DNA of 50,248 nucleotides from an uncultured bacterium (GCA_903888625.1 CAISUD010000060.1:1-50248), one strand, 5' to 3'; shown: positions 1,156 to 38,812, counted from the stretch's first letter. The notes: a model not told the origin generated them from the sequence alone. Numbers and translations are program-made.

Positions 1156-1866
1156 ATGCAATTAAAAAAACAATTTAAAAAACAAGGTGGCTTCACTCTT
1201 TTGGAAATTCTATTGGTTGTCGCTGCTATTGCTATCTTGGCAGGTATCATAATTCTTGCTATCAATCCAAACAAACAATTGGGTGATACTCGTAATTCTC
1301 AACGTCGCTTAGCCATTGATTCCATTATCAATGCTGTTTATCAATATTCACTTGACCACAATGGGCAATTACCCGGAGAGACGGGTGCTGCCCTCTCAAT
1401 TCCAGTGGGGGACATTAGCTCAGCGGCAGAAATTTGTTTAAATGATCCACAAGACCCAAATGGCAGACATATATTGGGATGTAGCGATCAAAATGGTGGT
1501 GCTGTTGATTTATCTGATTTAACTAGAAATGCCACCTATCTCACTTCTATCCCAGCTGATCCACTTCCTTCTGCTACTGATTCAGGTATTGCGGAAGATG
1601 GTAATGATTTTTGGTCTTGTTTTAGTTCTGATGGTGTAGCAAATAATGACTTAGGCTCATATGGTATATCTGGACCTGATGGCAGTGATCGGCTTCCACT
1701 TCCTACTGTAAATAACAGTTACGATGGAACCAGAAGAGGCTCAGGCTATTATATCTATCAAGATTCTAATACTCATCTTATTCATGTTTTTGCTCCTTGT
1801 GCCGAACAGACTAATTGGGATGAAGCAAGTGGAACTGGTGCAATTGATCTTTCTACTGTTCGTTAA
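1156..1866 (+). CDS. type IV pilin-like protein (prepilin N-terminal cleavage/methylation domain)
   Basis: KKQGG|FTLLEILLVVAAIAILAGIIILAI: G-1, F+1, E+5 class III signal peptide. Confidence 0.85.
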   Translation: MQLKKQFKKQGGFTLLEILLVVAAIAILAGIIILAINPNKQLGDTRNSQRRLAIDSIINAVYQYSLDHNGQLPGETGAALSIPVGDISSAAEICLNDPQDPNGRHILGCSDQNGGAVDLSDLTRNATYLTSIPADPLPSATDSGIAEDGNDFWSCFSSDGVANNDLGSYGISGPDGSDRLPLPTVNNSYDGTRRGSGYYIYQDSNTHLIHVFAPCAEQTNWDEASGTGAIDLSTVR

Positions 1867-1868
1867 TT

Positions 1869-3359
1869 ATGGAAGAAGCAAAGAAAAATAATTTTCATTT
1901 AAAGATTAAAAAAAATGCTGGACCAATTTTTGCTTTTTTGGTTTTGTTTATTTCACTTACTTTAACTTATTTTGCTTGGCGTTATAATCTTCAACTTTTA
2001 GAAAGTCAGGCACAATTACTATCCAGTGCAGGGCAATCTTCTTTACAGAGTTTTGCTATTTATGCTTCTAGTAATCAAATTTCTAAATTGATTGTAGTTG
2101 GAGGAATTATCGCTTCTTTTTCTATTTTTGGAATTATGCTTTCGATTTTAAGTGCTAGACGTAGAGCAGTAGATATTGCAGAAATAATTACTAAAAATTT
2201 AAAAGAAAAAAGTTTAGAATTAGAAAAATTAAATAAACTTTTAGCTAAAGAAACCAATGAAAATAACGCTATTTTGTCTTCAATGGGAGAGTCTTTGATT
2301 GGAATTTCCGGGGAAGGGAAAATTCTTTTTATGAATCAGATGGCGACGGCGTTAGTTGGACTTGCCAGTGGTGATGCTTACGGAAGAAACATCGATGAAG
2401 TTTTGCCTTTATACAAAAATGAAGAATTAATTGAACCTGAAAATTCTCCTATTCATCGAACAATTAAAGAAAATGAAATGGGTAGAGTTTATTTGTATGA
2501 CAATATTTTTACTAAAGATAAAAATGATCGTCGTTTCCCAATTGTTCTTTCTTCTGTTCCAATCAATCAAGAATATTCAGTCTATGACATTGCGAGTATT
2601 ATAATGTTTCATGATATTTCTACTGAAAAAGCAGTTGATCGTGCAAAAACAGAATTTGTGTCGCTAGCTGCTCACCAGTTGCGAATGCCACTTACTACTA
2701 TCAGATGGTATGTAGAAATGTTATTAGCTGGAGATCGAGGAGCCATTACTCCTGAACAGAAAGAATATATTGCAGAGATTGAAGAGAGTAATAAACGAAT
2801 GATTTTTTTGGTGAATAATTTATTAAATGTTTCAAGAGTTCGGTTAGGAACTTTTTCAATCGAACCTGTGCCAACTGATTTAAGTAAAATAGTAGAAAGT
2901 GTGATTGCTGAATTTAAACCTATTATCACTAAGAAAAAAATGAAAATAGAAACAGAAATTAGTGAAGGCATAAAAATATTTAATGCCGATTCAAATTTAA
3001 TGCGAGTAATTTTTCAAAATCTTGTTTCAAATGCTTTGAAATACACTGGCGAAGAGGGAACAATAAAAATTTCAATTGGTGAGAATAATGATCGTTTTTT
3101 TATTTCGGTAATTGACAATGGTTATGGTATTCCAAAAGATGATCAACCAAAAATATTCTCACAATTATATCGAGCAGAAAATGTCAAAACTAAAGAAGCC
3201 GATGGCAGTGGTTTGGGACTTTTTATGATAAAAACAATTATTGAAGAAGCCGATGGCACCATTTCTTTTAATTCTGAAGAAAATAAGGGTACGAAATTCT
3301 TTGTGACTTTTCCTAAAACTGGTATGAAAGCTAAAAAAGGCAGTGTAAAACTGACATAG
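1869..3359 (+). CDS. sensor histidine kinase (TM, PAS-like, HisKA, HATPase_c)
   Basis: H-box SLAAHQLRMPLTTI, N-box NLVSNALKYT, G1 DNGYGIP, G2 GSGLGL. Two N-terminal hydrophobic segments. No response regulator adjacent. Confidence 0.9.
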   Translation: MEEAKKNNFHLKIKKNAGPIFAFLVLFISLTLTYFAWRYNLQLLESQAQLLSSAGQSSLQSFAIYASSNQISKLIVVGGIIASFSIFGIMLSILSARRRAVDIAEIITKNLKEKSLELEKLNKLLAKETNENNAILSSMGESLIGISGEGKILFMNQMATALVGLASGDAYGRNIDEVLPLYKNEELIEPENSPIHRTIKENEMGRVYLYDNIFTKDKNDRRFPIVLSSVPINQEYSVYDIASIIMFHDISTEKAVDRAKTEFVSLAAHQLRMPLTTIRWYVEMLLAGDRGAITPEQKEYIAEIEESNKRMIFLVNNLLNVSRVRLGTFSIEPVPTDLSKIVESVIAEFKPIITKKKMKIETEISEGIKIFNADSNLMRVIFQNLVSNALKYTGEEGTIKISIGENNDRFFISVIDNGYGIPKDDQPKIFSQLYRAENVKTKEADGSGLGLFMIKTIIEEADGTISFNSEENKGTKFFVTFPKTGMKAKKGSVKLT

Positions 3360-3494
3360 TTGCTTTTTCTAAAAAGGTGGTATGATTAATATGTCGGGTC
3401 CTATTTACTACATTAATTTACTCGAGGACATTTATAAAATAACTTATGTTATATGGTTTATTTAGATAAATACGTCATATTAACTATTAAAAAA

Positions 3495-3935
3495 ATGAAA
3501 TATAAAAAACAAATTGCTACTACAGCACTCGCTATTTCTCTCCTTGTTGGAGGCACCAATGTGTTTGCTGCTACACCACAGGATTTAGGAATAAAAAATA
3601 TTACTCAATCTTATCAAAAACAAAATAAGGATAAGGGAAAAGAATTTAGAAAACAACATGACGTTGTCGGAGTTGTTTCAGTTCTGACAAGTACTGGTTT
3701 CACACTTAATGTTAAAAATTTAAAAACCAAAAAAACTTCTTCAACTGATATTCTGACCAATTCCACTACTACCTACAAAAAAGATGGACTTAAAGCATCT
3801 GAGACAGATTTACTAGTTGGACAGAAAGTAGTTGTGACGGGGACGCTCGATACAACGACTTCAATTTTTACTGCCAAAACTGTAAAAATTGTCACTAAAA
3901 TTTCCACTACCCCAAAAAGTAAAAATAAAGTATAA
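3495..3935 (+). CDS. secreted hypothetical protein
   Basis: Signal peptide MKYKKQIATTALAISLLVGGTNVFA at the internal Met 3495 (the track ORF starts at 3453). Thr/Lys-rich beta-type body. Confidence 0.55.
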   Translation: MKYKKQIATTALAISLLVGGTNVFAATPQDLGIKNITQSYQKQNKDKGKEFRKQHDVVGVVSVLTSTGFTLNVKNLKTKKTSSTDILTNSTTTYKKDGLKASETDLLVGQKVVVTGTLDTTTSIFTAKTVKIVTKISTTPKSKNKV

Positions 3936-3969
3936 AACCCTACAGGTCTTGCCTGTAAAACTAAAAAAT

Positions 3970-5402: not shown

Positions 5403-7100
5403 ATGGAATATAAAAACGAAACAAAAAACTGTCAGAATTGTAAAAATGAGTTTGTAATCAAACCAGACGATTTTGGGTTTTATGAACAAATGAAAGTTCC
5501 TCCTCCTGTTTGGTGTCCACAGTGTCGCTTACTTCGACGTATGGCTTGGTATGGATATCGAATTTTATATAAACGTAAATGTGATTTTACTGGTGAAAAT
5601 ATAATTACTTTTTATCATCCTAGTGTTCCAGGAAAAATTTATAAACAAGATATTTGGTGGAGTGATAAATGGGATCCAAAAAGTTATGGTCGCGATTATG
5701 ATTTTTCTAAACCATTTTTTGAACAATACAAAGAATTATTTGAGGAAGTTCCTAAGGCTTCACTTAACACAGAATATACTACTATGATAAATAGTGAATA
5801 TTGTAACGCAGCTAGTTTCCAAAAAAATGGTTATCTTTGTTTTAAACATATTACTGGAGAAGATTCTGCTTATACAAACGTAGCATTAAATACAAAAGAT
5901 TCTTTAGATCTTGCTTATTCATCCAACCCAGAACTTTGTTATGAAATAGTGGATGTGCGAAATTCTTTTCAAACTTTTTTTTCGCAAGATTGTGAAAATT
6001 GTCACAGTGTTTATTTCTCTAGAGATTTAGTAAATTGTGGTGATTGTTTTGGATGTACCTCATTAAGGAATAAAAATTATTGTTTATTTAATAAACAATT
6101 AACTAGAGAAGAGTATTTAAAAAAAATTAAAGAATTTGATCTTGGTTCAATGAAAAATGTTTTGGAATTTAAAAGAAAGGCTTATCTTTTGTCATTAGAT
6201 TATCCACGTCGAGCAACTCTTGGTAGAAATAATTTAAATGTTTCTGGAGAATATATATATAATTCAAAAAATGTTCATGATGCGTACTTTGTTTCTGATT
6301 CAGAAAATATTAGATACTCTCAGTTATTTTTAAAAGGGAAAACTCATAATTGTTATGATTTTACAGCTTTTGGTTCTAGTTCAGAATGGATATATGAAGT
6401 AACTTGGATGGGATTAAATACTTCGAATGTTAAATTTGGAATTTGGGGATATCGTAATCATCATACAGAATACACTTTTGGTTGTCATGGGTCTGCTTAT
6501 TTATTTGGTTGTGTTGGTTTAAATAAAGCCGAATATTGTGTTTTTAACAAGCAATATTCCAAAGAAGAATATTTTTCATTAGTTGAAAAAATTAAAAAAC
6601 AAATGGAAAAAATTCCTTTTATTGACAGAAGAGGATTAAAGCATGGATATGGTGGGCAGATACCCATTGATCTTTGCCCATATGCTTATAATGAATCTAC
6701 TGCTTTTGAATTTTTCCCATTAACAAAAGAAGAGGCGATTGCTAAAGGTTTTACTTGGCGTGACCCTGATTCACGTGAATACCTTCCAGCTAGTATTATT
6801 ATTCCAGATCATATTAAAGATGTGACAGATGATATATTAAAAGCAATTTTAAAATGTTTAGCTTGTGGTAAGAATTATCAAATAATTCAAAAAGAGTTAC
6901 AATTTTTACGTCGTTTTAATTTTCCTATTCCACATGATTGTCCACTTTGCCGAGATAGGAATCGTATTAAACAATTAAATCCGATGCAAACATATAAACG
7001 TAGCTGTGGTAAATGCAATATAGTAATTGAAACTTCTTATTCACCAGATCGACCAGAAATAGTTTATTGTGAAAAATGTTATCAGCAGGAAGTTTATTAA
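5403..7100 (+). CDS. cysteine-rich zinc-ribbon-flanked repeat protein, unknown function (paralogue 1)
   Basis: Start set at MEYKNETKNCQNCKNEF by identity with paralogue 2 (track start 5340 overlaps the upstream gene). N- and C-terminal CxxC...CxxC ribbons. Internal CxxCxxCFGCxxL..YCxFNKQ motifs. Confidence 0.75.
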   Translation: MEYKNETKNCQNCKNEFVIKPDDFGFYEQMKVPPPVWCPQCRLLRRMAWYGYRILYKRKCDFTGENIITFYHPSVPGKIYKQDIWWSDKWDPKSYGRDYDFSKPFFEQYKELFEEVPKASLNTEYTTMINSEYCNAASFQKNGYLCFKHITGEDSAYTNVALNTKDSLDLAYSSNPELCYEIVDVRNSFQTFFSQDCENCHSVYFSRDLVNCGDCFGCTSLRNKNYCLFNKQLTREEYLKKIKEFDLGSMKNVLEFKRKAYLLSLDYPRRATLGRNNLNVSGEYIYNSKNVHDAYFVSDSENIRYSQLFLKGKTHNCYDFTAFGSSSEWIYEVTWMGLNTSNVKFGIWGYRNHHTEYTFGCHGSAYLFGCVGLNKAEYCVFNKQYSKEEYFSLVEKIKKQMEKIPFIDRRGLKHGYGGQIPIDLCPYAYNESTAFEFFPLTKEEAIAKGFTWRDPDSREYLPASIIIPDHIKDVTDDILKAILKCLACGKNYQIIQKELQFLRRFNFPIPHDCPLCRDRNRIKQLNPMQTYKRSCGKCNIVIETSYSPDRPEIVYCEKCYQQEVY

Positions 7101-7124
7101 ATATTTATAGTTTTAAAAAAATAA

Positions 7125-8888
7125 ATGGAATATAAAAACGAAACAAAAAACTGTCAGAATTGTAAAAATGAGTTTGTAATCGAACCAGATGATTTTGGAT
7201 TTTATGAAAAAATAAATGTTCCACCTCCAACTTTTTGTCCAGAGTGTAGAATGAAAAGAAGAATGATTTGGAGGAATATAAGATTTTTAACTAAAGGCAA
7301 AGATGCTAAAGGGAACGAAATATTTATGTGTATTCATCCAAAAGCAAAGATTCCAGTGTACGAGTTTTCTTATTGGAACAGCGACAACTGGGGTGCTTTG
7401 AGTTTTGGCAGAGAATATATTTTTACTAAAAACTTTTTTGATCAGTTTCGAGATCTTTTTTATTCTGTGCCATTTCCAGCAAAAACTATTCAGAGATCGA
7501 TTAATTCTGATTATTCAAATAATTGTGATGATATGAAAAATACTTATTTGTGTTTCAATGCTACTTTCTTGGAAGACTGTGCTTATTGCATCGGTGCTAG
7601 TAAGTTAAAAAATTGTTTTGATATGAGTACTTGTTATGAAGATGAACTTTGTTATGAAAGTGTTCGAGTAGATAAAAGTTACCACACTATTGGATCTTAT
7701 ATGTGTGATAGCTGTGTAGATGTCTATTTTTCCAAGGATTGTGTGGGTTGTAATAATTGCTTTGGGTGTGTAAATTTGCGTAATTCTTCTTATAAAATAT
7801 TTAACGTACAATACACAAGGGAAGAATATATTAAGAAATTAGAAACATATAATTTACATACTTGGGGAGGTTTTTCTAAGGCGAAAAAAGAGGCTGAAAA
7901 TTTTTGGAGAAAGTTCCCGATAAAATATATGCTTGGTTTTCGGAATCATATGGTTTCAGGAGAAGATATAAAAGATAGCAGAAATGCAATTAATTGTTAT
8001 GGGGTAAAAGGAGCTGAAAATATTAAATATGTGCAAGATGCTTCTTTTGGTGGAGCTAGTAACTCTTATGATTTTACAAGTTGGGGATTAAACGTGTCTC
8101 AATTGTATGAATGCTTAGTGTGCGGAGAAAACCTTTATGATTTGAAGTTTTGTTATAATTGCTATCCTGACTGTCGAGAACTTGAATATTGTATTCAAAT
8201 GAGAAGATCTAAAAATTGTTTTGGATGTGTAGGGCTTAGAGATAAACAATATTGTGTTTTGAACAAACAATTTTCTAAAGAAGAGTATTGTTCACTAGTT
8301 GAAAAAATCAAGAAACAAATGGAAGAAATTCCTTTTATTGATAAAAAAGGAAATATATATAAATATGGGGAATTTTTTCCAAGCGATCTTTCTCCTTTTG
8401 CTTATAATGAGACTTATTTAAATGATCATTTTCCTTCCAACAAAGAAGAGGTTGAGAATATTGGTTTTAATTGGCGAGATGCAGAAAAAAGAGAATATGC
8501 AACCACTTTGGATTTTAGTGAATTAGTCGAATCTATTAAAGAGGCAGATGAATCAATAACTAAAGAAGTAATAAAATGTTCAGCCTGTAATAAAGCATAT
8601 CGGATTTTAAATAGCGAGTTTAGTTTTTTAAAAAATTTAAATTTACCATTGCCTAGAAAATGTAATAATTGTAGATTTTCCGATAGACAAAAGTTTATAG
8701 TTCCACCAAAATTTACAGAAGCTCAATGTATGTGTGGAGGAGAACAATCTATGAATTTTAAGTATAAAAATACTAGAATACATGATTTTCATAGAGGAGG
8801 AGAATGTCAAAATTTTTTTATGACCGCTTATGACTCTCAAAAAGATATTATTTATTGTGAAAAATGTTATCAGCAGGAAGTTTATTAA
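7125..8888 (+). CDS. cysteine-rich zinc-ribbon-flanked repeat protein, unknown function (paralogue 2)
   Basis: Same architecture as 5403-7100. The first 57 nt and last 38 nt are identical at DNA level to paralogue 1. Confidence 0.75.
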   Translation: MEYKNETKNCQNCKNEFVIEPDDFGFYEKINVPPPTFCPECRMKRRMIWRNIRFLTKGKDAKGNEIFMCIHPKAKIPVYEFSYWNSDNWGALSFGREYIFTKNFFDQFRDLFYSVPFPAKTIQRSINSDYSNNCDDMKNTYLCFNATFLEDCAYCIGASKLKNCFDMSTCYEDELCYESVRVDKSYHTIGSYMCDSCVDVYFSKDCVGCNNCFGCVNLRNSSYKIFNVQYTREEYIKKLETYNLHTWGGFSKAKKEAENFWRKFPIKYMLGFRNHMVSGEDIKDSRNAINCYGVKGAENIKYVQDASFGGASNSYDFTSWGLNVSQLYECLVCGENLYDLKFCYNCYPDCRELEYCIQMRRSKNCFGCVGLRDKQYCVLNKQFSKEEYCSLVEKIKKQMEEIPFIDKKGNIYKYGEFFPSDLSPFAYNETYLNDHFPSNKEEVENIGFNWRDAEKREYATTLDFSELVESIKEADESITKEVIKCSACNKAYRILNSEFSFLKNLNLPLPRKCNNCRFSDRQKFIVPPKFTEAQCMCGGEQSMNFKYKNTRIHDFHRGGECQNFFMTAYDSQKDIIYCEKCYQQEVY

Positions 8889-28386: not shown

Positions 28387-28857
28387 ATGCGAAGAAAAAT
28401 AAAAAATAAAAATATCGTTGAACCAGATTTCATTTATAACTCTCAAAAATTAGAGAAATTTATCAATTACACTATGTGGTCTGGAAAGAAGGAGACTGCT
28501 CGAAAAGTAATGTATAAAGCTTTTGATGTTATTAAAGAAAAAACTGGCAATCCAAATCCACTTGAGATTTTTGATTTGGCTATGAAAAATGCAGGACCTC
28601 TTACAGAAGTTCGTTCAAAAAGAATTGGAGGTGCTAACTACCAAGTGCCTCGAGAAGTTCGTCCAGAACGCCGACTTGCTCTTGCAATGCGTTGGATTCG
28701 TGATGCCGCTCGTTCTAAAAAGGGACAACCAATGCATATTAAACTTGCTGATGAATTAATTTCAGCTTCAAAAAATGAAGGTGCAGCTATTAAGAAAAAA
28801 GAAGATACTCACAAAATGGCAGAATCCAACAAAGCCTTTGCTCACTTCGCTTGGTAA
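28387..28857 (+). CDS. rpsG: 30S ribosomal protein S7
   Basis: GGANYQVPREVRPERRLALAMRWI ... KAFAHFAW. Confidence 0.95.
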   Translation: MRRKIKNKNIVEPDFIYNSQKLEKFINYTMWSGKKETARKVMYKAFDVIKEKTGNPNPLEIFDLAMKNAGPLTEVRSKRIGGANYQVPREVRPERRLALAMRWIRDAARSKKGQPMHIKLADELISASKNEGAAIKKKEDTHKMAESNKAFAHFAW

Positions 28858-29006: not shown

Positions 29007-29261
29007 TCATTTCAAACTTTCCTTAATCCTTTTTTTAAGAAATCTTCTAGCATTTCCTCTTAATTTTAGAGCTTGTTCTCTTTCACGAGCATCTTTTTCG
29101 ATTTTGTATGCTTCATAATAAATAAGTTCAAATGGCCTTCTAAATTTGGTAGAAAACGACTGTCCTGTTTGATGTTCTCTTATTCTTCTTTTTAAATCTT
29201 TTGTGCTTCCAATATATAATTCTTCATCTTTTTGACTCTTTAATACATATACGTAAAACAT
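29007..29261 (-). CDS. GIY-YIG nuclease-domain protein (small YhbQ/UPF0213-like)
   Basis: FYVYVLKSQKDEELYIGSTKDLKRRIREH ... YYE ... REREQALK. Start taken at MFYVYVL (the track ORF extends to 29297). Confidence 0.8.
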   Translation of the reverse strand: MFYVYVLKSQKDEELYIGSTKDLKRRIREHQTGQSFSTKFRRPFELIYYEAYKIEKDAREREQALKLRGNARRFLKKRIKESLK

Positions 29262-29290
29262 ATATAAATAATAACATAATTTATTGCTTG

Positions 29291-29318
29291 CCCGCATACT
29301 TAAATTAAGTGTGTGGGG
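29291..29318. repeat. short palindrome built on the same 13-mer as 28858-28995
   Basis: cccgcatacttaa / ttaagtgtgtgggg, a degenerate version of cccgcacacttaa / ttaagtgtgcggg. Confidence 0.7.
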
Positions 29319-29380: not shown

Positions 29381-29692
29381 ATGGAAAAAAACCAATGGAA
29401 TAATAATGGTATGAAGCTTATTCATCCAGAAAAACAAACTAATTTTAATGAAAAACTCCGTCCTTTGTTTGAGGCTATGAAAAAAGGCGAAAGAATAAAA
29501 TTAGTAATTTGTATGAGAGGGATAGATAATAAAGATAATCTAGAAAAAGATTTTAAAATAGAAGATTTTGTTGCTAAAGAATATTGGACTGACTTTTCAC
29601 AAAATCGTGATGAAAGCATAAAAGATGATCGTGTAACAACAGATAAAGGACAAGATTTTTATATGAGCTGGGTTCGTTATTTTGAATTTTAA
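29381..29692 (+). CDS. hypothetical protein
   Basis: 103-aa ORF between rpsG and fusA with its own terminator. No recognisable motif. Confidence 0.5.
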   Translation: MEKNQWNNNGMKLIHPEKQTNFNEKLRPLFEAMKKGERIKLVICMRGIDNKDNLEKDFKIEDFVAKEYWTDFSQNRDESIKDDRVTTDKGQDFYMSWVRYFEF

Positions 29693-29811: not shown

Positions 29812-31965
29812 ATGGAACGAGATTATCCGTTAGAAAAAGTTAGAAATATTGGAATTATCGCCCACATCGATGCGGGTAAAACAACTACCACCGAGCGTGT
29901 GCTTTTTTACACTGGGGTGTCTCATAAAATTGGGGAAGTGCATGATGGAGAAACTACTACCGATTGGATGGAACAAGAACGTGAAAGAGGTATCACCATC
30001 ACGTCCGCTGCTGTGACTTGTTTTTGGACTCCGACTTATTGCGATCCAAAAGATAAAACAAAGAAAACTCGTTTTAATATTATTGATACACCTGGGCACA
30101 TTGATTTCACTGTTGAAGTGAAACGTTCACTTCGAGTTCTCGATGGCGCGGTAGTTGTTTTTGATGGTGTCGCCGGAGTAGAACCACAATCTGAAACCAA
30201 CTGGCGTTATGCCGATGAAGCCAAAGTGCCTCGAATTTGTTTCATAAATAAATTGGACCGTATCGGTGCTTCTTTTGAACATTCCTTTGCTACGATTTTA
30301 GATCGTTTGACCAAAAAAGCTGTGCGTTTGCAAATCCCTATCGGCCTCGAAGAAAAACATGAAGGTGTAGTTGATTTACTCACAATGAAAGCTTTTTATT
30401 TTGAAGGTGAAATGGGAAATCTTGTTCTTGAAAAAGAAATTCCTGAAGACATGCGAGCTGATGCAGAAAAATACCACAATGAATTGATTGAAAAAATTGT
30501 TGAATTAGATGATGTCACGATGAATGATTATTTAGAAGGCAAGATTCCTGATATGGCAACCTTGAAAAAACTTTTGAGGAAAGGAGTTATTGCTAATGAA
30601 ATTTTCCCAGTGTATGCTGGCTCGGCTCTCAAAAACAAAGGAGTACAACTTGTGCTTGATGGCGTAGTAGATTATTTGCCTTCACCACTTGATATCCCAC
30701 CAATTACTGGAACTGATCCAGATAAAAATGATGAACCAATTGTTCGTCATGCAAGTGATTCTGAACCATTTTCAGCTCTGGCTTTTAAAGTTGCGACCGA
30801 TCCATTCGTCGGACAACTTATTTTCTTCCGAGTATATTCCGGAACCTTGTCTTCTGGTTCTTATGTTTACAATCCACGAACTCGTAATAAAGAACGTATC
30901 GGCCGAATTCTTCGAATGCATGCCAATGACAGAGAAGAAGTGAAAGAAGTTTTCGCTGGAGAAATTGCAGCCGCCGTCGGACTTAAAGACACCATTACTT
31001 CTGATACTATTTGTGAAGAAGAACATCCAATTGAACTCGATAGAATTATTTTCCCAGAACCAGTTATTCAACTTCGTATTGAACCAAAGACAAAAGCTGA
31101 CCAAGAAAAAATGGGTATGGCTCTTAACCGACTTGCTCAAGAAGATCCAACTTTTAAAGTTTCAACTGATCAAGAAACTGGTGAGACAATTATCGCTGGG
31201 ATGGGAGAACTTCATTTGGAAATTATTGTAGACCGAATGAAAAGAGAGTTTACTGTTGAGGCCAACGTGGGTAAACCACAAGTAGCTTACCGAGAAACTA
31301 TCACTAGTACTTCTGATGCAGAAGGAAAGTATATCAAGCAATCAGGAGGTCGTGGAAACTATGGTCATGTGAAGATTAAGATTAAACCAATGACAATTCT
31401 TACCAAAGAAGAAGTCGAAGACTTACCAAAAAATACTAAACGTTCAGATGGTTTTGAATTTATCAACGATATCAAAGGAGGTGTCATTCCTCAAGAATAT
31501 ATTTCTCCTTGTGAAAAAGGATTTAAAGAAGGGTTGGACAGGGGAGTCTTGGCAGGTTTCAAAATTGTAAATGTTTCGGTTGATCTTTATGACGGTAGTT
31601 ATCACGAAGTGGATTCCAATGAAATGGCTTTCAAAATTGCCGCTTCGATGGCAGTGCAAGATGCTTGTAAGAGAGCAAAACCAGTAATCCTAGAGCCAAT
31701 GATGAAAGTTGAAGTTGTTACACCAGAAAAGTTTATGGGAGACGTGACTGGAAACCTTTCTTCAAAACGTGGAATTATTGAAGGTATGGAAGATCGTGGA
31801 ATGAATAAAGTTTTGAAAGCAATTGTTCCTCTCTCTGAAATGTTCGGCTATATGACCTCACTCCGTTCAATGACCGAAGGCCGTGCATCATTCACTATGG
31901 AATTCATGCGTTACGATATTGTGCCAAACAACGTCGCTGAAACAATTATCTCTGCTAGAAAATAA
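29812..31965 (+). CDS. fusA: elongation factor G
   Basis: [37 protein letters not shown]. Full five-domain length. Confidence 0.95.
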
Positions 31966-33810: not shown

Positions 33811-34236
33811 ATGCCTGAAACAAAAACAAAAATTAAAAAGACAAAGGTGGTAAAAAAAATTGATACAGATGAAGAGTCAATTTCTTCTAATAAGATTAAA
33901 ATTCCTAAAAAAGAAAAAAAAGAAGATAACAAAGTAGTGCTTCGAATTCGGGTTCGAGCCTATGAAAGTAAAATTCTTGATGCTTCTGTTAAACAAATTA
34001 TCGACACTGCGATGCGTTACGATGCCAAGATAATTGGTCCGGTACCATTGCCTACTGAAATCAAAAAATACACAGTTAATCGTGCTTCTTTTATTTACAA
34101 AAATACTCGAGAACAATTTGAAATTAGAGTGCATAAAAGATTAATTGATATTATTAACCCTGAAGCCAAGACAATGGAAGCGCTTACCAATTTATCATTA
34201 CCTTCGGGAGTTGATATAGATGTAAAAATGTTATAA
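33811..34236 (+). CDS. rpsJ: 30S ribosomal protein S10 with a ~40-aa Lys-rich N-terminal extension
   Basis: Core LRIRVRAYESKILDASVKQIIDTA ... GPVPLPT ... FEIRVHKRLIDI. Confidence 0.9.
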   Translation: MPETKTKIKKTKVVKKIDTDEESISSNKIKIPKKEKKEDNKVVLRIRVRAYESKILDASVKQIIDTAMRYDAKIIGPVPLPTEIKKYTVNRASFIYKNTREQFEIRVHKRLIDIINPEAKTMEALTNLSLPSGVDIDVKML

Positions 34237-35881: not shown

Positions 35882-36730
35882 ATGAAAACGCATAAACCTA
35901 CAACTAAATCAAGACGCCAAATGACTCACGTGACCTATCGCGGAGTTATTACGAAGACTGAGCCAGAAAAATCTTTAACCCACGGTTTTCGCCGTTCTGT
36001 TGGACGCAATAGTCAAGGACGAATAACCACTCGCCATAAAGGTGCTGGACATAAGCGTTTATATCGAGAAGTTGATTTTTTATATAATAAAAAAGAAATT
36101 CCAGCAAAAATTAAAAGTGTTGAATACGATCCAAATCGTTCAGCTTTTATTGGTCTTGCCGTTTATAAAGATGGAGAAAAAAGATATGTAGTTTTACCGA
36201 AAGCAGTTAAAGTCGGTGAAACTTTCATTGTATCTGAAAAGGCAGAACTTTCAGTTGGCAATAGATTGCCTTTGAAAAATATTCCAGTTGGTACTTTTGT
36301 TTACAATATTGAATTGAAACCTCGAGGCGGTTCCAAAATTGGCCGTTCGGCAGGAATCTTTGCTCAAGTTGTGGCTAATGCCGATGGTTATACCAACATA
36401 AAAATGCCATCTTCTGAAGTTCGAAAAATAAATGAAAATTGTTGGGCTTGTATCGGAGTTGTTTCTAATGAAGAACATCATTTAGAAAATTATGGTAAGG
36501 CCGGACGCTCTCGTTGGAAAGGAATTCGTCCGACTGTCCGAGGTACTGCCATGAACCCAGTAGACCATCCATACGGAGGAGGTGAAGGCAGACAAGGCCG
36601 TGGAACCAAGCGTCCAAAGACGATGTGGGGTAAAGTCACCGGTGGACGAAAAACAAGACACCCAAAGAAATACTCCAATGTCTTTATGGTTTCTCGCCGA
36701 AAAACCGGCAAATCCCGAAAGTCTCAATAG
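35882..36730 (+). CDS. rplB: 50S ribosomal protein L2
   Basis: GRNSQGRITTRHKGAGHKRLYR ... GTAMNPVDHPYGGGEGR. Confidence 0.97.
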   Translation: MKTHKPTTKSRRQMTHVTYRGVITKTEPEKSLTHGFRRSVGRNSQGRITTRHKGAGHKRLYREVDFLYNKKEIPAKIKSVEYDPNRSAFIGLAVYKDGEKRYVVLPKAVKVGETFIVSEKAELSVGNRLPLKNIPVGTFVYNIELKPRGGSKIGRSAGIFAQVVANADGYTNIKMPSSEVRKINENCWACIGVVSNEEHHLENYGKAGRSRWKGIRPTVRGTAMNPVDHPYGGGEGRQGRGTKRPKTMWGKVTGGRKTRHPKKYSNVFMVSRRKTGKSRKSQ

Positions 36731-36733
36731 ATA

Positions 36734-36781
36734 CATAGTTTTAACAAAAAATGCATAGTTTGTTGCAGATTTGCATAGTTT
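36734..36781 (+). repeat. three direct repeats CATAGTTT at exact 20-bp phasing
   Basis: Copies at 36734, 36754 and 36774. The third overlaps the -35 TTGCAT of the downstream promoter. Confidence 0.7.
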
Positions 36782-36799
36782 TGTGGTAAATGCTATTAT
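36771..36799 (+). promoter_or_regulatory. promoter TTGCAT-17-TATTAT (TGc extended -10), leaderless
   Basis: The -10 ends 6 nt before ATG 36806. Confidence 0.5.
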
Positions 36800-36805
36800 T
36801 ACCAT

Positions 36806-37534
36806 ATGGATGAAAAAGATTTAATTTCCATAAGAGAAACAGCTGAAATATTAAATGTTTCAATTGATACATTAAGACGTTGGGACGAGAGCGGACGTTT
36901 TTTGTCTGTTCGCAATAGCCCAACAGGTCATCGTTATTATTCAAAAAAAGCTGTTTTGATTTATTTAAACGATTTATTAAAAATAGCTACTGATTGGATT
37001 TCAAGTGGGGTAGAAATGCCAGCTAATTTTTATTGTGCTAATAGTGGAGTGTTGCAGTCTCGTTTAGCTAAAATGCAAGATGAGTTTGGAAAAATAAATA
37101 ATGAAGAAATAAAAAAAATATATCCGTTGGTCGTGGCTGTAGCAGGAGAAATTGGCAACAATTCTTTTGATCATAATCTAGGGAATTGGCCTGATGTGCC
37201 TGGAATTTTCTTTGGTTATGATTTAAATAAAAGACAAGTTGTATTAGCTGATCGTGGTCAAGGAATTTTACAAACATTAAAAAGAGTTCGTCCAGAATTA
37301 ATAGATGATAAGGAAGCTTTAAGAATTGCTTTTACAGAAATTTTGTCTGGTCGAGCACCAGAAGAAAGAGGGAATGGACTAAAGTTTGTAAGACAAGTTG
37401 TCACTCAAAGCTTATTAGGTTTGTCTTTTCAGACTGGTAATGCAGAACTGGAATTAAAGAAAGACAGTTCTGATTTAAATATAAAAAATGCTGGAAATTA
37501 TTATAGAGGTTGTATCGCTTTTATTACTTTTTAG
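36806..37534 (+). CDS. MerR-type HTH fused to a GHKL (SpoIIAB/RsbW-like) ATPase domain
   Basis: HTH IRETAEILNVSIDTLRRWDESGRF..R..TGHRYY. N-box GEIGNNSFDH, G1 DRGQGI, G2 GNGLKFV. Confidence 0.7.
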   Translation: MDEKDLISIRETAEILNVSIDTLRRWDESGRFLSVRNSPTGHRYYSKKAVLIYLNDLLKIATDWISSGVEMPANFYCANSGVLQSRLAKMQDEFGKINNEEIKKIYPLVVAVAGEIGNNSFDHNLGNWPDVPGIFFGYDLNKRQVVLADRGQGILQTLKRVRPELIDDKEALRIAFTEILSGRAPEERGNGLKFVRQVVTQSLLGLSFQTGNAELELKKDSSDLNIKNAGNYYRGCIAFITF

Positions 37535-37548
37535 TATAATATAAATAT

Positions 37549-37839
37549 ATGAATATATTTTTAGAAAAATTTGGAACGACATTAATTTCTCGACAATCTG
37601 GCAGAGAGGCTTTTTCTGCCTTCAAACCACTTTTAAATAATCTTGGTGCGACAGAAGATATAACAATTGATTTTAAAGGAGTTATTACTTTTTCGCCATC
37701 TTGGGGGGATGAATTTTTAAGGCCATTAATAGAAGGATATAAAAATAAAGTTGTCCTAAAAAATACAGAAAATCTTTCAGTTAAGGCTACATTGGAAATT
37801 TTAGAAAAAATTGGAGATATGAAGTTTAATACTTTATAA
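37549..37839 (+). CDS. STAS-like DUF4325-domain protein
   Basis: LISRQSGREAF...ITIDFKGVITFSPSWGDEFL follows the DUF4325 pattern (SR..G ... v.lDF.GV...s.SF.DEf). Confidence 0.65.
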   Translation: MNIFLEKFGTTLISRQSGREAFSAFKPLLNNLGATEDITIDFKGVITFSPSWGDEFLRPLIEGYKNKVVLKNTENLSVKATLEILEKIGDMKFNTL

Positions 37840-37846
37840 TACATCT

Positions 37847-38239
37847 ATGCAAAAAATTAATGAGAAAAAAAGGTTTTCGTTGGTGGCTCGGGTGAAAAGT
37901 ACTAACAATGCTTTTCGGGGTTTTGTTATTTTTTTAAAAAGTACGCATAATTTTTGGGTGCATATTTTCTTTGCCGTCTTGGCAATTTATTTAGGTTTTC
38001 TTTTTCAGATTTCTAGTACTGAATGGATGTTTTTAGTTTTAGTTATTGGTTTAGTTTTTATCACCGAATCATTTAATACCGCTATGGAGATTGATATTGA
38101 TTTAACTTCTCCAGATTTTCATCCGTATGCCAGGGATACAAAGGATGTCGCTGCCGGTACAGTTTTAATAGCTGTCCTCCTCGCGGGGATTGTCGGAATT
38201 ATTATCTTTTTGCCCAAGATTTTAGCTTTGTATTTTTAA
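37847..38239 (+). CDS. dgkA: diacylglycerol/undecaprenol kinase (DgkA family)
   Basis: ESFNTAMEIDIDL ... ARDTKDVAAGTVLIAVL aligns with the E. coli DgkA motifs EILNSAIEAVVD and AKDMGSAAVLIA. Three TM helices. Confidence 0.8.
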   Translation: MQKINEKKRFSLVARVKSTNNAFRGFVIFLKSTHNFWVHIFFAVLAIYLGFLFQISSTEWMFLVLVIGLVFITESFNTAMEIDIDLTSPDFHPYARDTKDVAAGTVLIAVLLAGIVGIIIFLPKILALYF

Positions 38240-38260
38240 AAATTCTCCTCTTCTAGAGTA

Positions 38261-38343
38261 CCCGATTTTAATAAATCGGGGGAGGTGGATGCATTTAATA
38301 TCCACCCCGTCTTTTGAGTACAAAAGCCACCCCTCAAGAGGGG
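38261..38343 (+). terminator. cluster of four GC-clamped hairpins after dgkA
   Basis: cccgattt-taat-aaatcggg, ggtggat-9nt-atccacc (followed by cgtctttt), cttttg-agta-caaaag, cccc-tcaaga-gggg. Confidence 0.45.
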
Positions 38344-38353
38344 AATATAAAAT

Positions 38354-38381
38354 TTGACATTTTATGCCTATTTGCTAATAT
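38354..38381 (+). promoter_or_regulatory. restart promoter TTGACA-16-TAATAT (TGc extended -10) for rpsS and downstream genes
   Basis: aaatttgacattttatgcctatttgctaatat. Followed by an ~80-nt leader with the GC-rich stem gtcgcgc/gcgcgac (38418-38444). Confidence 0.6.
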
Positions 38382-38464
38382 AAGAACAAGCTCGTTTGGA
38401 GCTTTTTGTTTACTAGCGTCGCGCCTATAGGACGGTCGCGCGACATGATTTCGCTAAATCAATT

Positions 38465-38812
38465 ATGACACGATCAATCAAAAAAGGAATAAATGTAGAC
38501 GAAAAACTGCTAAAAAAGATAGCAGGTAAAAATCCGCTTCAAACTCCAATGATCAAGACTTGGAAGCGTGCTTGTCAGATAGCACCGGAGATGGTTGGTT
38601 TCGTTTTTGGTGTTCACAATGGCAAAACTCACGTAGAAGTTTTGGTCACTGAAGATATGGTAGGTCACCGCTTGGGAGAATTTTCACAAACCAAGAAATT
38701 TATTAAACATGGAGGTAAAATGCAGAAAGAGTTAGAACAAAAGAAAAAAGAAGCTGAAATAACTCAAGCCAAGTCTGCGACGGCTGCCGCTGCTGATGCC
38801 AAGAAAAAATAA
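38465..38812 (+). CDS. rpsS: 30S ribosomal protein S19 with a Lys/Ala-rich C-terminal extension
   Basis: TRSIKKGINVDEKLLKK ... GVHNGKTHVEVLVTEDMVGHRLGEF. Confidence 0.95.
   Translation: MTRSIKKGINVDEKLLKKIAGKNPLQTPMIKTWKRACQIAPEMVGFVFGVHNGKTHVEVLVTEDMVGHRLGEFSQTKKFIKHGGKMQKELEQKKKEAEITQAKSATAAAADAKKK

Follow-up and report, generated by a model that had tools for sequence, protein, structure and literature searches.

A candidate kinase-STAS gene pair with its own predicted operator array, inserted between rplB and rpsS in an uncultured bacterium

We analysed a stretch of 50,248 nucleotides (nt) from an uncultured bacterium (GCA_903888625.1, CAISUD010000060.1:1-50248), hereafter called the window, and examined the interval between the ribosomal protein genes rplB and rpsS, whose adjacency is among the most conserved in bacteria. 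Three genes were found to separate them, and every coordinate given in a preliminary description of the locus was confirmed (Table 1). The first encodes a 242-amino-acid (aa) protein with a helix-turn-helix (HTH) and a predicted GHKL domain (gene 1), the second a 96-aa DUF4325/STAS-like protein (gene 2), and the third, dgkA, a diacylglycerol kinase; the remaining S10/spc genes continue downstream of rpsS. The identical arrangement was present on 8 independently assembled contigs, which excludes misassembly as the origin of the split.

The limits of the insert were set by comparison with L122, the closest relative by RplB (94% identical), in which rplB, an intrinsic terminator, dgkA, the rpsS promoter and rpsS follow one another and the pair is missing. 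The DNA homology between the window and L122 ends at 36729 and restarts at 37835, and this is its sole interruption. Because the homology is broken only between 36730 and 37835, the insert consists of 1.1 kb with the operators, a promoter and two genes. By this comparison, dgkA is an earlier resident of the gap and lies outside the new insert; the preliminary description had treated all three genes as inserted, which holds for the pair, absent from L122, but not for dgkA, resident beforehand. A CCCC-GAAA-GGGG terminator stands after rplB in L122 and in L181, whereas rplB of the window is followed by none, indicating that the rplB terminator is lost in the window genome. Since dgkA begins 7 nt downstream of the cassette, the two are probably co-transcribed; a TATAAT is also present at 37835-37840, just ahead of dgkA.

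Table 1. Features of the rplB-rpsS interval (coordinates counted from the first nucleotide of the window).
Feature	Coordinates	Strand	Remarks
rplB (L2)	35882..36730	+	Pfam Ribosomal_L2_N/C; last gene of the upstream transcription unit
Inserted cassette (operators, promoter, two genes)	36731..37834	+	Limits from DNA comparison with L122; same site in L181-L184
Three direct repeats, predicted operators	36732..36781	+	TACATAGTTT 36732-36741, TGCATAGTTT 36752-36761, TGCATAGTTT 36772-36781
Predicted promoter TTGCAT-17-TATTAT	36771..36799	+	-35 at 36771-36776; -10 at 36794-36799; extended -10 TG at 36791-36792
Gene 1, 242-aa HTH-GHKL open reading frame	36806..37534	+	First gene of the cassette
Gene 2, 96-aa DUF4325/STAS-like open reading frame	37549..37839	+	Second gene of the cassette
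dgkA (diacylglycerol kinase)	37847..38239	+	DAGK_prokar, E 2e-31
Terminator-like hairpin GGTGGAT-N9-ATCCACC with T-rich tail	38284..38316	+	Hairpin at 38284-38306; closes the cassette/dgkA unit
rpsS promoter TTGACA-16-TAATAT with TG, then 5' hairpin AAGCTCgtttgGAGCTT and U-run	38354..38404	+	
rpsS (S19)	38465..38812	+	Pfam Ribosomal_S19, 3e-30; first gene of the downstream transcription unit

The gene 1 protein comprises a winged HTH (wHTH, about aa 5-55), a conserved helical linker (about 57-100) and the GHKL domain (about 100-242). The HTH matched Pfam MerR (8.8e-10) and NCBIfam HTH_BldC (1e-4, under the cut-off of that model), and it matched BldC in the PDB (6ama/6amk, E 2e-4). Residues D21, T22, R25, W26, H42 and R43 align with K26, T27, R30, W31, H46 and R47, the residues with which BldC, bound head-to-tail on direct repeats, contacts bases, the backbone and the minor groove (PMC5859096). 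Both proteins thus have a MerR-type wHTH that lacks the classical coiled coil and keeps the DNA-contact residues; BldC, however, is a stand-alone protein of 68 aa (PMC5859096), whereas the HTH of the window protein is fused to a GHKL domain of ~140 aa. The MerR-type HTH named in the preliminary description was therefore retained as a Pfam assignment, but judging from the aligned residues the domain is of the BldC/excisionase-like subtype for direct repeats rather than a classical MerR dimer.

An AlphaFold2 (AF2) model of the gene 1 protein had a mean predicted local distance difference test (pLDDT) score of 81.8, and its 50 best Foldseek matches in the PDB were to Hsp90, GyrB, ParE and topoisomerases VI and II, with the one exception of BmrR, a member of the MerR family, at rank 33. 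The GHKL matches had probabilities of mostly ~0.9-1.0 and E-values of ~1e-4, and the viral library agreed. The N-box NNSFDH (aa 118-123) and the G1 and G2 motifs DRGQGI (149-154) and GNGLKF (189-194) were invariant or nearly invariant in 30 homologues, and E115, N119, D149, G151, G153, G189 and G191 were invariant in all of these. A subgroup of relatives without the HTH (181-195 aa), found partly outside the Patescibacteria and likewise followed by a DUF4325 gene, keeps the nucleotide-binding residues except D149, which is F in P0342 and Y in P0369. The motifs and the model together support a GHKL (Bergerat) fold for the predicted C-terminal domain, in agreement with the earlier reading of the three motifs.

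Sequence searches with the GHKL domain gave no match in NCBIfam, PADLOC or the PDB, where the matches of the protein were confined to the HTH; with PADLOC, too, gene 1 gave a single HTH match, to mad1. Weak Pfam HATPase matches were obtained for distant relatives, namely P0316 (0.018) and gp32 of Gordonia phage Phishy (4.5e-4 and 2e-3), the latter being a related fusion of STAS with HATPase_c/HATPase_c_2 encoded between the tail genes and the integrase. Just 295 relatives of the C-terminal domain were found among 1.8 billion cluster representatives, and a plasmid search with an HTH-less homologue gave no match.

The 96-aa protein encoded by gene 2 matched DUF4325 (PF14213) at 5.9e-4 and 19.9 bits, under the 23-bit cut-off, while many homologues that are 60-90% identical to it pass PF14213 and bear the NCBI name DUF4325. 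Its AF2 model (pLDDT 93.7) had RsbS-type STAS proteins, free or in stressosomes, as the four best Foldseek matches (probability 0.96-0.98, TM-score 0.58-0.65, E 0.05-0.1). A STAS fold and membership in the DUF4325 family are supported by the model and by the homologues above the cut-off, as the preliminary description had it. S51 is invariant, also in the partners of the HTH-less proteins, and S49 is nearly so, with Ala in a few. In the literature searched, DUF4325 was mentioned just three times, each time incidentally, and PF14213 was not found.

Pairs of this kind had been called uncharacterised in the preliminary description, a statement overtaken by the characterisation in 2026 of the homologous pairs CapK/CapS and VapK/VapS. 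CapK, an HTH-STAS-GHKL protein activated by single-stranded DNA (ssDNA), phosphorylates a conserved Ser of the STAS-wHTH repressor CapS, and in the anti-phage system VapKSC phosphorylation of the STAS antitoxin VapS by VapK frees the PIN toxin VapC (Chambers et al., EMBO J 2026, PMC13373217). Using hhalign, we compared family profiles of the gene 1 and gene 2 proteins with the single sequences of VapK, VapS and CapK taken from the appendix of that paper. The alignment of the gene 1 profile with VapK covered the GHKL domain in full (probability 70.6%, E 3.9e-5, 126 columns, 33% identity), NSFDH pairing with NSFEH of VapK and G1 and G2 being in register; with CapK, a local match of G1 alone was obtained (E 5.5e-4). 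The gene 2 profile aligned with VapS (probability 76.8%, E 2.1e-5), which itself matches Pfam DUF4325 at 1e-16. A note of 2017 had reported the coupling of PIN.4 VapC genes to DUF4325 genes, and the membership of VapS in DUF4325 accounts for this coupling. A plasmid search with VapS returned a single match, a decayed locus without kinase sequence. Profile searches thus bore out the earlier domain assignments in part, reaching DUF4325 through the homologues and VapK and VapS through hhalign, but not the HATPase families of Pfam. On these alignments, the two genes are a VapK/VapS-like kinase-STAS pair and represent the CapK/VapK-STAS systems in a further architecture.

The likeness to VapKSC extends over the full-length aligned GHKL domain with its N-box NSF[DE]H, the DUF4325 partner, the order of a kinase gene followed directly by the STAS gene, and a conserved Ser at the start of STAS helix 2. 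The window pair differs from VapKSC in that no VapC or other effector lies beside it and in that a BldC-like HTH takes the place of VapK's N-terminal STAS domain, which holds the ssDNA groove; residues 56-100 were purely helical in the AF2 model and gave no STAS match, so the internal STAS domain of CapK/VapK is absent. The STAS protein also lacks the C-terminal inhibitory helix (96 aa as against 116 aa in VapS), since it stops with the last STAS helix and has no counterpart of VapS residues 94-116. With CapK/CapS ('controller of adjacent pathways'), the window pair has in common an autoregulated kinase-substrate pair on its own promoter, as predicted in the window, an N-terminal HTH on the kinase, and a G1 region of the form D-x-G-x-G-I-x-x-T-L-K-R. 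However, in CapKS it is the STAS protein CapS that carries the DNA-binding domain and binds palindromes, the HTH of CapK having no known role, whereas in the window the DNA-binding domain is on the kinase, the predicted sites are direct repeats and no immune operon follows.

The pairs SpoIIAB-SpoIIAA and RsbW-RsbV share with the cassette the logic of a GHKL kinase and a single-domain STAS antagonist, and the nearest STAS fold is that of RsbS. The cassette differs from them in having neither a sigma factor nor a conserved PP2C phosphatase, and we do not assign it to SpoIIAB/RsbW specifically: hhalign with hand-entered SpoIIAB and RsbW sequences gave probabilities below 1%, as was also the case for a hand-entered GyrB N-terminal sequence, and no significant similarity to SpoIIAB or RsbW was seen. 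The partner-switching logic without a sigma factor that had been put forward earlier stands in so far as no sigma factor gene recurs beside the pair, but the proposed likeness to SpoIIAB/RsbW is not detectable by sequence.

We also considered that the GHKL domain, like its counterparts in GyrB, MutL, Hsp90 and MORC, might serve as an ATP-dependent dimerisation clamp and not as a kinase; the ATP level would then govern cooperative DNA binding, with the STAS protein as an unphosphorylated modulator. The top Foldseek matches are indeed GHL-type ATPases (Hsp90, GyrB, topoisomerases VI and II) and not kinases, the N-box fits ExxxNxxD, and a spacing of 21 bp between DNA sites, as described below, invites bridging through the C-terminal domains. 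We find this distinctly unlikely, given that the domain is small (~140 aa) and has no transducer domain, that its best sequence relative is the kinase VapK, and that an invariant Ser stands in the canonical phospho-site region of the STAS partner.

Ahead of gene 1, CATAGTTT occurs at 36734, 36754 and 36774, that is, at a spacing of exactly 20 bp; the 50-kb window has only seven copies in all. The last of the three repeats overlaps the -35 element of the promoter, for which a promoter scan returned the same site as had been read by eye, shifted by one base. The ATG of gene 1 (36806) lies 6 nt past the -10 element and is not preceded by a Shine-Dalgarno sequence, and the predicted transcription start is at or adjoining it; a leaderless transcript is therefore plausible. 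Upstream of 81 family members, TG[C/T]ATAG occurred at a mean of 2.12 copies per 150 nt, the mean of 9746 control windows taken at these loci being 0.007; the enrichment is ~300-fold, and any copy was found in just 66 of these control windows away from the cassette. This type of array was present at 77 of the 81 loci, and 67 loci had two to four TG[C/T]ATAG copies, spaced most often by 21 bp (59 times) and next by 20 bp (14 times). At most loci the copy nearest the gene doubles as the -35 element, and the distance from operator to ATG peaks at 34 nt, the window included.

Residue 21, just before the invariant TLRRW in the recognition helix, was observed to covary with operator bases 3-4: D goes with TGCATAG (53/56 loci), Q or M with TGTATAG (18/18), N with TGGGTAG (2/2), and T or S with TGAGTAG (3/4). 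As residue 21 aligns with K26 of BldC, the covarying residue is the counterpart of the base-reading Lys26. The sites resemble those of BldC in a half-site like G-N4-AT-rich and in direct-repeat arrays of variable number; BldC protomers, however, touch each other on repeats of ~9-10 bp (PMC5859096), whereas the repeats of the cassette are 20-21 bp apart. From the classical MerR arrangement the promoter differs in having no palindrome in a 19-bp spacer, the window spacer being 17 bp. That the repeats are operators read by the HTH of gene 1 is strongly supported by the comparison of the 81 loci and by the covariation, and direct binding with autorepression through -35 occlusion is a well-supported prediction. 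The preliminary description had read the three repeats and the leaderless promoter correctly from the sequence, and its proposal of operator sites is upheld.

Operator-like repeats were also seen at two other positions. In L028 (903-940), two copies of TGCATAGATTT at a distance of 19 bp form an operator motif pair; a gene for an AAA-type ATPase begins ~180 nt downstream of them, the cassette is 5 kb away, and the regulator may have a further target here. In L176 (~3900-3960), GTAGCCCTCCTGGAAT occurs twice, 21 bp apart, upstream of a GC-rich, HTH-less homologue; the spacing equals that of the Patescibacteria operators, though this homologue has no fused HTH.

The pair was found at at least 535 loci in species-representative genomes, most of them titled as Patescibacteria or related candidate groups and a few as other taxa, and its neighbourhoods were counted at the best 80 of these. 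A DUF4325 gene directly follows gene 1 at 78 of the 80 loci, and there is strong support for the two genes belonging together obligately and being homologous to a kinase and its substrate. The surroundings are diverse: 1115 neighbouring open reading frames (ORFs) fell into 1001 clusters, with no family at more than five loci, and in this clustering no PP2C, sigma factor, PIN nuclease or integrase recurred beside the pair. A recombinase encoded by the cassette was considered and is not present. The next ORF downstream shares the strand of the pair at only 50 of 73 loci, and the unrelated contexts include a zeta-toxin, a resolvase, PP2C/YaaC, a CAP-domain protein, a 3168-aa protein and glycosyltransferases.

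Direct repeats flank the cassette at 15 of 69 testable loci, as against 4 of 197 pseudo-cassettes shifted by 3-4.5 kb (Fisher p = 7e-7). They are 20-213 bp long, 84-100% identical and of locus-specific sequence; in most cases the downstream copy starts -28 to +62 nt from the gene 2 stop, and the upstream copy ends 0-110 nt ahead of the first operator. The window copy has no flanking repeat. From these comparisons the cassette is self-contained and apparently mobile, and the pattern fits host-mediated recombination, either through a single-crossover (Campbell-type) circle with flanking homology or through homology-facilitated illegitimate recombination after DNA uptake. In L094, the cassette and its downstream sequence occur twice (1852-3600 and 6849-8597), 99.3% identical and 5 kb apart on one contig, by segmental duplication or by a second insertion. 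In L006, a gene for a PP2C phosphatase (7022-7783, minus strand) is convergent with the DUF4325 gene, whose end it overlaps; this adjacency, seen at one genomic place among those examined (contigs L006 and L007), would complete a triad of kinase, substrate and phosphatase.

The pair is 74% identical in L018, where RpsS is 73% identical, and 52% identical in L095, where RplB is 49% identical. Since its divergence resembles that of ribosomal proteins at these two measurable loci, long vertical episodes are likely. Such divergence, together with an occurrence in hundreds of species across the classes of the candidate phyla radiation and the extra operator pair before the AAA ATPase gene in L028, could be taken to mean that gene 1 encodes a vertically inherited core transcription factor of the Patescibacteria with a wider regulon, that its positions vary by poor synteny and that the window shows a local rearrangement. 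We hold this to be quite improbable: the pair is missing from the gap of L122 (RplB 94% identical) and yet present at RplB identities of 89-96%, flanking duplications are enriched, L094 has two 99%-identical copies, and operator arrays are nearly confined to the cassette, as the low count in the control windows shows.

The gap itself was compared among 80 metagenomic loci encoding RplB relatives. In distant lineages (RplB at most 60% identical), the rplB-rpsS junction is tight, with 3-103 bp and one exception; where RplB is 60-75% identical, the gap reaches up to 4 kb or rpsS is absent within 5 kb; and the gap measures 70-1390 bp in each relative whose RplB is at least 80% identical. The survey of relatives suggested earlier thus gave a pair absent from L122, a variable gap in all close relatives and a tight junction in distant lineages. 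The ~60 nt before rpsS are conserved whatever the gap holds and comprise TTGACA-N16/17-TGnTAtTAT, a short hairpin and a U-run. This promoter is kept in all relatives with RplB at least 80% identical and in L018, and the hairpin shows compensatory changes between lineages, from AGCTC/GAGCT to GGCTC/GAGCC. The conserved promoter indicates that rpsS heads its own transcription unit across the clade. Because the split is clade-wide and comes with an rpsS promoter of its own, the broken adjacency pointed out in the preliminary description is real but was not made by this cassette. The hairpin and U-run may act in attenuation or stabilise the 5' end; in the window and in L014, a further ~60 nt (38405-38464) are present, which include a palindrome, GTCGCGC...GCGCGAC.

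The gaps of the relatives carry varied cargo. Directly after rplB, L113 (5897-6428) has genes for a HicB-like protein and HicA, followed by a 61-nt duplicate of the rplB 3' end, and L096 (1689-2304) has Phd and PemK/MazF, followed by a duplicate of 28 nt. A GIY-YIG endonuclease is encoded in the gap of L117, fragments of N6-methyltransferases in L139 and L141, dgkA alone in L122, and dgkA with a 243-aa ORF without family match in L150; several other gaps hold ORFs of no assigned family or GC-rich non-coding blocks. Such blocks of 460-965 bp were found in L103, L104, L108, L111, L115 and L144 (49-53% GC against a background of ~40%, no convincing ORF), and they may be structured RNAs or decayed elements; Rfam searches returned no known RNA in these GC-rich gap blocks, in the insert or in the rpsS leader. 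In L181-L184 (RplB 89-96% identical, pair 93% identical), the cassette occupies the same site as in the window, and in L181 a second, 98%-identical rplB 3' end of 49 nt begins 2 nt past the gene 2 stop and is followed by the rplB terminator. Across these loci, the rplB-rpsS gap is a hotspot, or landing pad, for toxin-antitoxin and other cassettes in the clade.

In L018 (1503-5158, pair 74% identical), rpsS keeps the conserved promoter, but a staphylococcal-nuclease-like gene stands before it in place of rplB, which is absent within 9.6 kb; the pair is at a distance of 2.3 kb, on the opposite strand. In the window itself, a 96-aa GIY-YIG/T5orf172 ORF (29007-29297, minus strand) breaks the str operon between rpsG (28387-28857) and fusA (29812-31965) and, with a 103-aa ORF next to it (29381-29692), makes up another selfish-looking insertion in a conserved ribosomal cluster.

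The landing site and the duplication of the rplB 3' end are common to the cassette, HicAB and Phd-MazF, which also agree in size and gene number. A toxin-antitoxin or abortive infection module was therefore weighed, in which the GHKL kinase would be a toxin acting on a host target, the DUF4325 protein a pseudo-substrate antitoxin, and the HTH the means of type II autoregulation. A small, mobile, autoregulated two-gene cassette would suit this explanation, as would the proven role of the DUF4325 protein VapS as the antitoxin of VapKSC (PMC13373217), the coupling of DUF4325 to PIN.4 VapC genes, the relative in the prophage accessory region of Phishy, and the vicinity of zeta-toxin, resolvase and YaaC genes. 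Type II modules differ, however, in having a recognisable toxin, which is missing here, while the DNA-binding domain of the cassette is on the larger, enzyme-like protein. In addition, no match to a known toxin or defence family was obtained in Pfam, NCBIfam or PADLOC, the characterised relatives use the kinase as a sensor and not as an effector (PMC13373217), and the very high conservation at at least 535 loci is unusual in addiction modules. We therefore consider a toxin-antitoxin function unlikely, though it deserves serious weight.

The preliminary description had offered a link to ribosomal operon expression or a tolerated selfish insertion, and the second proved the better of the two options. 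For the first, one could imagine that the cassette was recruited to control the S10/spc operon: with no terminator after rplB, a bound repressor could act as a roadblock, and rplC-rplB-rpsS follow just downstream of the pair in L095. However, no ribosomal gene is near the pair at 78 of the 80 other loci, the two exceptions, which have rplB or rpsS in the vicinity, agreeing with a chance expectation of 1-2; rpsS has its clade-conserved promoter irrespective of the cargo; and no operator motif was found near the rpsS promoter of the window. Recruitment for ribosomal control is thus highly improbable. Among the ribosomal proteins of the window, S10 (33811-34236) has a Lys-rich N-terminal extension of ~40 aa, and S19 (38465-38812) and L22 (38848-39297) have C-terminal tails rich in Lys, Ala and Glu.

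In our judgement, 36731-37834 is probably a copy of a mobile, self-repressing kinase-STAS switch that is common in the Patescibacteria and landed here in a pre-existing gap. One HTH protomer would bind each TGCATAGTTT repeat, all on the same face of the DNA, given that 20-21 bp are two helical turns; the comparative support for this step is strong. Since the promoter-proximal repeat covers the -35 element, we propose autorepression of the leaderless promoter by the gene 1 protein. The cooperativity of binding would be set by the GHKL domains of adjacent bound protomers together with the STAS partner. Upon a signal, the kinase would phosphorylate the STAS protein at S51 or S49, by homology with the phosphorylation of VapS by VapK and of CapS by CapK, and the remodelled complex would release both the cassette and the downstream dgkA from repression, transcription ending at the 38284-38306 hairpin. 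The cassette would have arrived by host recombination beside the resident dgkA, duplicating the rplB 3' end, and the duplicate would later have been lost in the window genome along with the rplB terminator.

Several findings weigh against this switch. The link of the GHKL domain to VapK consists of one moderately probable profile-sequence alignment (70.6%) and the predicted structure, and neither the window domain nor four homologues gave a HATPase_c or HATPase_c_2 match in Pfam even at E 10. In the alignment with VapS, S48 falls on P50, flanked by S49 and S51, so that the choice between S51 and S49 as candidate phospho-acceptor is ambiguous. The STAS domain with the ssDNA groove of CapK/VapK is absent from the predicted kinase, and the STAS partner comes without a linked effector and lacks a tail for DNA binding or inhibition. 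Direct repeats flank only ~22% of the loci, and a divergence of the pair close to that of the ribosomal proteins fits vertical descent as well as mobility.

A more far-reaching version can be entertained tentatively, as a possibility that we would not call probable. The pair would then be a phylum-wide minimal form of the CapK/VapK-VapS switch, in which the kinase itself is the operator-bound repressor, recognition follows a code of one residue and two bases, and spread occurs by host recombination with long target duplications; its function would be that of an autonomous sensor in addiction or defence, or else that of a portable inducible promoter for any sequence downstream of it. If true, this would also explain the function-less HTH of CapK. 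As it stands, the HTH-GHKL protein with a bare STAS protein would add a third architecture to the CapK/CapS-VapKSC family and hints at a role for the HTH of CapK.

For the organisms, the constitutive split of rplB and rpsS in a whole clade is of interest in itself, and the repeated occurrence of rplB 3' end duplicates suggests a route of insertion based on recombination. In annotation, insertions in the ribosomal operons of these genomes would be better read as cargo than as ribosome-related genes. Patescibacteria have very few recognisable regulators, and a kinase-STAS switch with a readable operator code would offer a testable circuit in organisms that are beyond culture.

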